Below, one piece after another: positions 6,001-9,000 of a stretch of DNA of 10,623 nucleotides. Made by a program: the position numbers. Position 1 is the stretch's first letter. Each line of letters starts with the position of its first letter. Location: the NCBI RefSeq assembly GCF_003334815.1, contig NZ_QOWO01000061.1, one strand, 5' to 3'. This DNA is from Escherichia coli. Its GTDB lineage: Bacteria > Pseudomonadota > Gammaproteobacteria > Enterobacterales > Enterobacteriaceae.

Positions 6001-9000
6001 CGGCAAAATCGCGCCGAAGGATGTCGCTGCCGACTGGGCAATGGAGCGCCTGCCGGCCCAGTATCAGCCCGTCATACTTGAAGCTAGACAGGCTTATCTT
6101 GGACAAGAAGAAGATCGCTTGGCCTCGCGCGCAGATCAGTTGGAAGAATTTGTCCACTACGTGAAAGGCGAGATCACCAAGGTAGTCGGCAAATAATGTC
6201 TAACAATTCGTTCAAGCCGACGCGCTTCGCGGCGCGGCTTAACTCAAGCGTTAGATGCACTAAGCACATAATTGCTCACAGCCAAACTATCAGGTCAAGT
6301 CTGCTTTTATTATTTTTAAGCGTGCATAATAAGCCCTACACAAATTGGGAGATATATCATGAAAGGCTGGCTTTTTCTTGTTATCGCAATAGTTGGCGAA
6401 GTAATCGCAACATCCGCATTAAAATCTAGCGAGGGCTTTACTAAGCTTGCCCCTTCCGCCGTTGTCATAATCGGTTATGGCATCGCATTTTATTTTCTTT
6501 CTCTGGTTCTGAAATCCATCCCTGTCGGTGTTGCTTATGCAGTCTGGTCGGGACTCGGCGTCGTCATAATTACAGCCATTGCCTGGTTGCTTCATGGGCA
6601 AAAGCTTGATGCGTGGGGCTTTGTAGGTATGGGGCTCATAATTGCTGCCTTTTTGCTCGCCCGATCCCCATCGTGGAAGTCGCTGCGGAGGCCGACGCCA
6701 TGGTGACGGTGTTCGGCATTCTGAATCTCACCGAGGACTCCTTCTTCGATGAGAGCCGGCGGCTAGACCCCGCCGGCGCTGTCACCGCGGCGATCGAAAT
6801 GCTGCGAGTCGGATCAGACGTCGTGGATGTCGGACCGGCCGCCAGCCATCCGGACGCGAGGCCTGTATCGCCGGCCGATGAGATCAGACGTATTGCGCCG
6901 CTCTTAGACGCCCTGTCCGATCAGATGCACCGTGTTTCAATCGACAGCTTCCAACCGGAAACCCAGCGCTATGCGCTCAAGCGCGGCGTGGGCTACCTGA
7001 ACGATATCCAAGGATTTCCTGACCCTGCGCTCTATCCCGATATTGCTGAGGCGGACTGCAGGCTGGTGGTTATGCACTCAGCGCAGCGGGATGGCATCGC
7101 CACCCGCACCGGTCACCTTCGACCCGAAGACGCGCTCGACGAGATTGTGCGGTTCTTCGAGGCGCGGGTTTCCGCCTTGCGACGGAGCGGGGTCGCTGCC
7201 GACCGGCTCATCCTCGATCCGGGGATGGGATTTTTCTTGAGCCCCGCACCGGAAACATCGCTGCACGTGCTGTCGAACCTTCAAAAGCTGAAGTCGGCGT
7301 TGGGGCTTCCGCTATTGGTCTCGGTGTCGCGGAAATCCTTCTTGGGCGCCACCGTTGGCCTTCCTGTAAAGGATCTGGGTCCAGCGAGCCTTGCGGCGGA
7401 ACTTCACGCGATCGGCAATGGCGCTGACTACGTCCGCACCCACGCGCCTGGAGATCTGCGAAGCGCAATCACCTTCTCGGAAACCCTCGCGAAATTTCGC
7501 AGTCGCGACGCCAGAGACCGAGGGTTAGATCATGCCTAGCATTCACCTTCCGGCCGCCCGCTAGCGGACCCTGGTCAGGTTCCGCGAAGGTGGGCGCAGA
7601 CATGCTGGGCTCGTCAGGATCAAACTGCACTATGAGGCGGCGGTTCATACCGCGCCAGGGGAGCGAATGGACAGCGAGGAGCCTCCGAACGTTCGGGTCG
7701 CCTGCTCGGGTGATATCGACGAGGTTGTGCGGCTGATGCACGACGCTGCGGCGTGGATGTCCGCCAAGGGAACGCCCGCCTGGGACGTCGCGCGGATCGA
7801 CCGGACATTCGCGGAGACCTTCGTCCTGAGATCCGAGCTCCTAGTCGCGAGTTGCAGCGACGGCATCGTCGGCTGTTGCACCTTGTCGGCCGAGGATCCC
7901 GAGTTCTGGCCCGACGCCCTCAAGGGGGAGGCCGCATATCTGCACAAGCTCGCGGTGCGACGGACACATGCGGGCCGGGGTGTCAGCTCCGCGCTGATCG
8001 AGGCTTGCCGCCATGCCGCGCGAACGCAGGGGTGCGCCAAGCTGCGGCTCGACTGCCACCCGAACCTGCGTGGCCTATACGAGCGGCTCGGATTCACCCA
8101 CGTCGACACTTTCAATCCCGGCTGGGATCCAACCTTCATCGCAGAACGCCTAGAACTCGAAATCTAACGTCCGTTCGGGCATCGAGGTCCATGTCGGGGT
8201 GGGACGGGCCCGTGGCTTCAAGATCACTTGCAGTCCGACCGCGATGTCTTGGTTGCGCGAGAGGTTGTCGATATCTGTTGATTTGCACCCAAATTTGACC
8301 CGGGATTTGCATTGAATTTTGACCCACCCCTTGTTGTCAGAATTATGTCTCGATTTTCAGTTTGCGGGTCTGTTTTTCCTCCTGCTTATTCTGAGTTGAA
8401 CTGTGTTTGAAGCGGTAACTTTCATTGCCGGTTTCCAGGATGTGGCAGTGGTGGGTTAGTCGGTCCAACAACGCTGTTGTCATCTTTTCATCGCCAAACA
8501 CTCGGCTCCATTCCGAGAAGCTCAAGTTGGTGGTCAGTATCACGCTGGTTTTTTCGTACAGCTTTGAGAGCAGGTGAAACAGCAGTGCCCCACCGGTTTG
8601 GCTAAAAGGCAAATATCCCAGCTCATCCAGAATCACCAAATCGGCATACAACAGACGGTTTGCGATTTGTCCCTGACGCCCAGATGATTTCTCTTGCTCC
8701 AGTGCATTGACCAAATCCACGGTGGAGAAGAAACGCACCCGTCGGTTCAAGTGCATCACTGCTTGTGTACCAATGGCTGTGGCCAGGTGAGTCTTGCCTG
8801 TGCCTGGCCCACCAATCAGCACCACGTTCTGGGCTTGTTCCATGAAGTCGCACCGGTGCAATTGTTTGACCGTGGCCTCATTAACCAGGCTTTGACTGAA
8901 GTCAAAGCCCACCAAGTCCCGATACACGGGGAACTTGGCCACCCGCAATTGATAGTTCACCGAACGTACTTCACGCTCTGCCACTTCAGCTTTAATCAAG

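Follow-up and report, generated by a model that had tools for sequence, protein, structure and literature searches.

The gene orf5, which follows sul1 in the 3′-conserved segment (3′-CS) of class 1 integrons, was analyzed in a stretch of 10,623 nucleotides from Escherichia coli (contig NZ_QOWO01000061.1), hereafter called the window. The explanation that we favor, and that we consider likely, is that its product is a catalytically competent, stand-alone acetyltransferase of the GNAT type, perhaps with a small amine as its acceptor, i.e., orf5 probably encodes an active small-molecule N-acetyltransferase that is carried as a passenger in class 1 integrons. The gene as such is already known and is a textbook feature of these elements. 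The literature that we found treats it as an uncharacterized gene or as a structural marker and assigns it the label “unknown function” (PMC3001079, PMC3382206); no functional test is reported there, which is absence of evidence only, as most subscription journals lay outside the scope of the search. What is added here is the placement of the protein in a subfamily, the finding that the labels puromycin and aminoglycoside acetyltransferase have no specific support, a map of the predicted catalytic residues and the observation that in E. coli the gene is broken more often than it is intact. Orf5 belongs to the most widely spread uncharacterized genes in clinical bacteria, with at least a fragment of it in about 7% of the plasmids sequenced and in roughly one of four complete E. 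coli genomes, and a substrate for it would provide an annotation for more than 600 cluster representatives, including proteins with solved but uncharacterized structures.

The gene is located at positions 7667–8167 on the plus strand and encodes 166 amino acids between an ATG start and a TAA stop codon, exactly as claimed in the first-pass annotation, a sequence-only reading of the window that preceded this work. It corresponds to the GNAT family N-acetyltransferase WP_000376623.1 of plasmid R100, and its 501 bp show 100% nucleotide identity to orf5 of R100/Tn21 (In2), with an identical gene order. The local DNA has a GC content of about 66%, and two further long open reading frames overlap orf5, one of 164 amino acids on the minus strand (7645–8139) and one of 181 amino acids on the plus strand (7753–8298). 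Both were rejected as GC-rich artefacts, as their GC contents by codon position (0.52/0.67/0.80 and 0.73/0.66/0.51, respectively) are atypical; the values for orf5 (0.67/0.50/0.79) form a pattern that fits coding DNA of a GC-rich donor. The orf5 protein matches the Pfam families PF00583 (Acetyltransf_1, E 2.3e-14), PF13508 (Acetyltransf_7, E 2.4e-13) and PF13673 (Acetyltransf_10, E 2.2e-9), and its homologues are under purifying selection, with ratios of nonsynonymous to synonymous substitution rates of 0.14–0.17 for three Phenylobacterium-like genes. Among the overlapping frames, only that of orf5 behaves as a gene. It is preceded by a Shine–Dalgarno-like sequence, AGGGGAG (7657–7663, plus strand), which had been rated as good; its GGAG core (7660–7663) is indeed recognizable, but the spacing of 3 nt to the ATG is short.

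In order to obtain a structural model with AlphaFold2, we used an alignment (A1) of 70 genuine homologues with 30–62% identity as input. The model is of high confidence (mean pLDDT 96.2, pTM 0.90) and its strands and helices follow the canonical GNAT order β1-α1-α2-β2-β3-β4-α3-β5-α4-β6-β7, so that structure prediction and comparison with characterized GNATs, suggested in the first-pass annotation as a check, returned the fold that had been expected. In A1, residues A12, W39, D77, W81, P82, H93, R99, G103, R127, L128, L134, Y138, G142, F143 and R161 are conserved in at least 90% of the sequences, and Asp129 is the sole invariant residue. Motif A, R98-R-T-H-A-G-R-G-V106 (7958–7984, plus strand), lies in the β4–α3 loop, is predicted to bind the pyrophosphate of acetyl-coenzyme A (acetyl-CoA) and contains the highly conserved R99 and G103. 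Within it, T100-H-A-G103-R-G105 represents the x-x-x-G-x-G form of the Q/RxxGxG/A loop, and both glycines align with those in RGRGIA of E. coli YpeA, the structure of which was solved with acetyl-CoA (PDB 4QVT), and in RGQGIG of human SSAT2. The first position of the loop is a threonine in orf5 and is variable across the subfamily. The acetyl-CoA-binding motif had been recognized before, and a loss of its conserved residues upon careful alignment had been named as an observation that would speak against it; such a loss was not seen, the residues are kept. Motif B, Y138-E-R-L-G-F143 in α4 (8078–8095, plus strand), contains the highly conserved Y138, G142 and F143, with Tyr138 as the predicted general acid. 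In an ungapped alignment with SSAT2, Tyr138 falls on Tyr140 and His93 on Glu92, which serve as the general acid and the general base of SSAT, respectively. His93, itself highly conserved, is part of Y91-L-H93 in β4 (7937–7945, plus strand), and the invariant Asp129 is part of R127-L-D129-C130 in β5 (8045–8056, plus strand). Asp129 may be a ligand of the substrate amine or a partner of His93.

Several conserved residues are specific for the subfamily, namely W39, D77, F80, W81, P82, Y91, D129 and R161. They reside in the α1–α2 loop, the β3–β4 loop, β4, β5 and β7, and in GNATs these loops and strands surround the acceptor site. From the secondary structure of the model, we infer that the eight residues line the acceptor pocket. 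Trp39 in the α1–α2 loop (7781–7783, plus strand), conserved in at least 90% of the sequences of both A1 and alignment A2, is a predicted wall of this pocket on the basis of GNAT architecture, and so is the signature D77-P-E-F-W-P82 (7895–7912, plus strand) in the long β3–β4 loop, which comprises residues 75–88 in the model. The orf5 product thus looks catalytically competent. A reaction course can be proposed in which acetyl-CoA would bind along the splay between β4 and β5 and the acceptor amine would enter the pocket formed by Trp39, Asp77, Phe80, Trp81, Pro82, Tyr91, Asp129 and Arg161. His93, possibly aided by Asp129, would deprotonate the amine, which would then attack the thioester directly within a ternary complex, and Tyr138 would protonate the leaving CoA thiolate.

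When 1.84 billion cluster representatives were searched exhaustively, 634 were retrieved at E<1e-10; judged by sequence comparison, orf5 is a member of a large, widespread and uncharacterized subfamily of 2OH1-like GNATs. The best match among solved structures is 2OH1 from Listeria monocytogenes 4b F2365, an uncharacterized protein from structural genomics (E 4e-6 with the single sequence, E 3.4e-27 with the profile of 70 homologues over residues 5–149), followed by the likewise uncharacterized 3H4Q; 3H4Q, 2FIA and 2PC1 group with 2OH1 as the closest solved relatives. 2OH1 and orf5 have YLH, RLDC and Y..GF in common, whereas they are only 22–24% identical, 2OH1 has LWED in place of FWPD, and there are small insertions. 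Since 2OH1 itself is without a known substrate, it transfers no function to orf5. In AFDB50, uncharacterized proteins were the only ones found. No NCBIfam model came near its cut-off, the best one being PRK03624 (YpeA-type) with 35 bits versus 124. Pfam, fold, AFDB50 and profile tests therefore all agree with the earlier description of orf5 as a GNAT in the class 1 integron 3′-CS that lacks an assigned substrate. Among phage protein families (PHROGs), the match is to the generic “acetyltransferase” family phrog_1249 (E 7e-28) and to no other, and the defence-system library of PADLOC gave no match.

Among the characterized enzymes, SSAT1/SSAT2 (PDB 2BEI), which act on spermidine/spermine and thialysine, can be aligned over the full length (residues 9–153, E 4e-5). 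The general-acid tyrosine and the GxG loop of SSAT2 align exactly with those of orf5. On the other hand, identity is about 20%, a glutamate stands at the base position that is occupied by His93 in orf5, the polyamine-binding residues are not kept, and the polyamine models of NCBIfam do not match. SSAT is the best template for the probable mechanism of orf5, as a mechanistic analogue and not as a family member. The nature of the acceptor can be narrowed down with low confidence: we suggest a primary amine of small-molecule type, e.g., an amino-acid-like metabolite or a xenobiotic, and favor it over aminoglycosides and puromycin, because acidic, basic and aromatic residues are all conserved in the compact pocket and because the nearest characterized structural neighbors include several acetyltransferases for amino acids or their analogues. 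Enzymes of the PAT/ArsN1/ArsN2 type are structural neighbors only; the scores for ArsN2 (16.3 bits versus a cut-off of 125) and ArsN1a (16.1 versus 170) do not place orf5 among the amino-acid-analogue acetyltransferases.

The same kind of evidence bears on the puromycin and aminoglycoside labels. For decades, orf5 has been described as “similar to puromycin acetyltransferase” (PMC3001079). Puromycin acetyltransferase (PAC, 7K09) is a GNAT just like orf5, and the two proteins share local similarity over motifs A and B, spanning 63–79 residues (E 0.0047 for the single sequence, residues 84–146; E 1.8e-5 for the profile). Full-length similarity was not found, and many unrelated GNATs score better than PAC, which ranks 10th (single sequence) or 29th (profile) among the PDB matches. 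The old label, to judge from the alignments, reflects the superfamily motifs A and B only. Among the NCBIfam models for aminoglycoside acetyltransferases (AAC), AAC_6p_group_E scores best with 19.8 bits versus a cut-off of 140, and the others reach 13.7–18 bits versus 200–325. The first-pass annotation had given aminoglycoside and puromycin-type acetylation as examples of possible activities; neither finds specific support, with a PAC match of 63 amino acids at E 0.005 and AAC models at no more than 20 bits versus 140–325. Taken together, the AAC(6′), AAC(3), ArsN, Sat2 and RimI models give 14–20 bits versus cut-offs of 86–360. The RimI score, 16 bits versus 86, also bears on the possibility that orf5 acetylates a protein of the host or the plasmid, either at the N-terminus in the manner of RimI/Ard1 or at lysine residues. 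We consider this improbable. Scores for such enzymes are no better than those for small-molecule GNATs, the signature residues appear to form a compact pocket and not an open peptide groove, as far as can be concluded from secondary structure, and the spread of the gene from Proteobacteria to Corynebacterium speaks against dependence on one particular partner protein. A GNAT toxin of the TacT/AtaT type was also considered and rejected, because there is no adjacent antitoxin gene: neither the 127-bp gap to sul1 nor the 108 bp before IS1326 contains a small open reading frame that could encode one.

The distribution of the gene argues for its interpretation as a passenger. In PLSDB, 4,828 of 72,556 plasmids contain orf5 DNA, with an identity of at least 99% in 4,807 cases, and the integron-borne gene is essentially invariant in sequence. 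At least 80% of the gene is present in 2,735 of these 4,828 plasmids (57%). For complete E. coli genomes, the corresponding numbers are 1,277 of 5,426 with orf5 DNA at 99% identity or more and 382 of 1,277 (30%) with at least 80% of the gene. Full-length sul1, for comparison, was found in 5,000 plasmids or more. Of the plasmids with any orf5 DNA, about 43% contain a truncated copy, as do about 70% of the respective E. coli genomes, which speaks for a passenger and against a function under selection. The earlier statement that the gene is widely carried is borne out by these counts, but it overstates the importance of orf5 in view of the truncations. The most common form in E. coli is a 5′ remnant of 178 bp (7667–7844), which is annotated as a 67-amino-acid “hypothetical protein” (WP_000376616.1). 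In one dfrA17-aadA5 integron (L016, 4001–4178), this remnant lies behind sul1, and about 130 bp separate it from a downstream IS26. Many of the orf5 protein variants are C-terminal fusions that arose from differing junctions. In the explanation that we favor, orf5 would have become fixed as the sul1-orf5 segment was added to the 3′-CS and would be dispensable for the success of the element.

The frequent truncation is also the main reason why a role as a cryptic resistance enzyme is unlikely: where integrons do well, orf5 is mostly found in a damaged form, and this in plasmids and E. coli genomes with an intact sul1 context. According to this proposal, orf5 would have been co-selected with sul1 when the 3′-CS was formed and would complement Sul1 as a sulfonamide N4-acetyltransferase, or it would act on an aminoglycoside, a puromycin-like nucleoside or a toxic amino-acid analogue. 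If true, cryptic resistance or detoxification would already be everywhere. The position of orf5, 127 bp downstream of sul1 and in the same orientation without a terminator-like site in between, is in line with the idea, as are the strong conservation of aromatic and charged pocket residues, the weak matches to AAC(6′), AAC(3), ArsN and Sat2 models, a gene for an APH-family phosphotransferase next to the closest relative outside integrons, and rare fusions with glyoxalase/bleomycin-resistance, esterase, methyltransferase and nucleotidyltransferase domains. Against it stand resistance-family scores of at most 20 bits versus cut-offs of 125–360 and a PAC match that spans the generic motif only, and the phosphotransferase neighbor and the fusions are single observations. 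Furthermore, folP is present in none of ten homologue neighborhoods, a published search around sul1 did not find a chromosomal origin (PMC6335563), and the literature that we found describes no resistance phenotype. For R100, the rows of AMRFinderPlus and RGI contain aadA1, qacEdelta1 and sul1 and lack orf5, and together with the literature this fits the previous statement that a resistance phenotype has not been demonstrated. A related scenario, rather a long shot in our opinion, would have orf5 and the 2OH1-like subfamily detoxify one specific small amine, e.g., by N4-acetylation of sulfonamides or p-aminobenzoate analogues or by acetylation of a natural amino-acid antimetabolite; sul1 and orf5 would then once have constituted a two-gene defence, the second member of which is redundant in the clinic.

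The competent but dispensable enzyme that we favor differs from an intact but inert relic solely in that the protein would be produced and functional, and the two explanations overlap in all other respects. The relic would be scarcely expressed or would lack a substrate in clinical hosts and would have been kept since the 3′-CS is young and has spread clonally. Identity of at least 99% in nearly all plasmids agrees better with recent clonal spread than with selection, truncations are very frequent, the spacing between the Shine–Dalgarno-like sequence and the start codon is only 3 nt, and a sigma-70-like promoter was not found upstream of orf5. However, none of the residues that determine catalysis or fold has been lost, the confidence of the model is high, and expression by read-through is plausible: orf5 is probably read through from sul1, because the 127-bp gap between the two genes (7540–7666) holds no terminator-like site, which would amount to co-transcription. 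We give the relic no more than a very slim chance.

The genetic environment of the relatives of orf5 was inspected as a further source of information. Database “homologues” with 53–90% identity were rejected as diverged relatives, as they represent the same orf5 DNA with paired or multiple frameshifts. Such copies are found at positions 8001–8501 of loci L001, L002 and L003 and in proteins P0040, P0025, P0051, P0075, P0106 and P0121; the frameshifts are either assembly errors or real indels and inflate the apparent diversity of the family. True relatives start at about 60–62% identity and stem from metagenome-assembled genomes of Phenylobacterium and from unassigned metagenome contigs. The closest relative outside integrons is encoded on L015, a metagenome contig of 1.7 kb from JGI (gene at 1009–1520, about 76% amino acid and 75% nucleotide identity), and is broken by a 4-nt gap. 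Homology of this contig to the window is limited to 7648–8164, i.e., to the Shine–Dalgarno sequence, kept as GGGGA-CGAATG, and the gene. The divergently oriented neighbor (2–829) encodes the APH-family phosphotransferase mentioned above (PF01636, E 2e-34). A scan of metagenome DNA for further L015-like genes found none.

The ten homologue neighborhoods share no conserved partner. The respective gene lies downstream of an acyl-CoA dehydrogenase gene, between parC and aspS, after a UDP-glucose dehydrogenase gene in a sugar cluster, beside unannotated genes, or overlaps a class I lysS by 4 nt. Two family genes (L010, 959–3147; L007, 5726–10359), one with the lysS overlap and one in the parC-aspS interval, thus adjoin genes for aminoacyl-tRNA synthetases, which may be a coincidence. 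Most relatives with several domains are GNATs in tandem; the remaining fusion partners, namely phosphosulfolactate phosphatase, HAD, esterase, glyoxalase, methyltransferase and NTP_transf_6 domains, were seen once each. As neighborhoods and fusions vary, context points to no substrate.

The window as a whole represents that end of Tn21 which carries the integron. Across all 10,623 bases, its identity to plasmid R100 is 99.99%, and one 1-nt indel is the sole difference. Starting from the left, the list of open reading frames comprises tnpA (35–3001), tnpR (3004–3564) and intI1 (4243–5256), all on the minus strand, followed by aadA1, qacEdelta1 (6359–6706) and, according to both this list and the R100 annotation, sul1 (6700–7539, plus strand). 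Downstream of orf5, residual 3′-CS DNA (8168–8275, plus strand) was recognized by homology to 3′-CS copies that lack IS1326, and istB/istA of IS1326 (8343–10620, minus strand) are again documented by the list and the R100 annotation. The junction between 3′-CS and IS1326 lies at 8275/8276, 108 bp past the orf5 stop codon; homology to the IS1326-free copies L001, L002 and L003 stops at 8271–8275. The adjoining end of IS1326 carries repeated TTTGAC/TTTGCA motifs (8276–8330).

Three further observations concern the surroundings of aadA1 and the R100 plasmid. The indel mentioned above is located at 6222–6223, where a C of R100 (GCCGACG-CGCTTCG) is missing in the window just 3′ of the aadA1 stop codon, a place at which the attC site of the aadA1 cassette is expected. 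Another gene of R100 that is annotated as a GNAT family N-acetyltransferase (WP_000656305.1, R100 19764–20141; L014, 1–301) is unrelated to orf5 and is situated just past the tnpA end of Tn21 and hence outside the window. Upstream of aadA1, the AAC_AAD_leader (RF02912, 73.9 bits, 5349–5427, plus strand) is the sole Rfam match in the window at gathering score and coincides with the putative aminoglycoside riboswitch/attI1 region.

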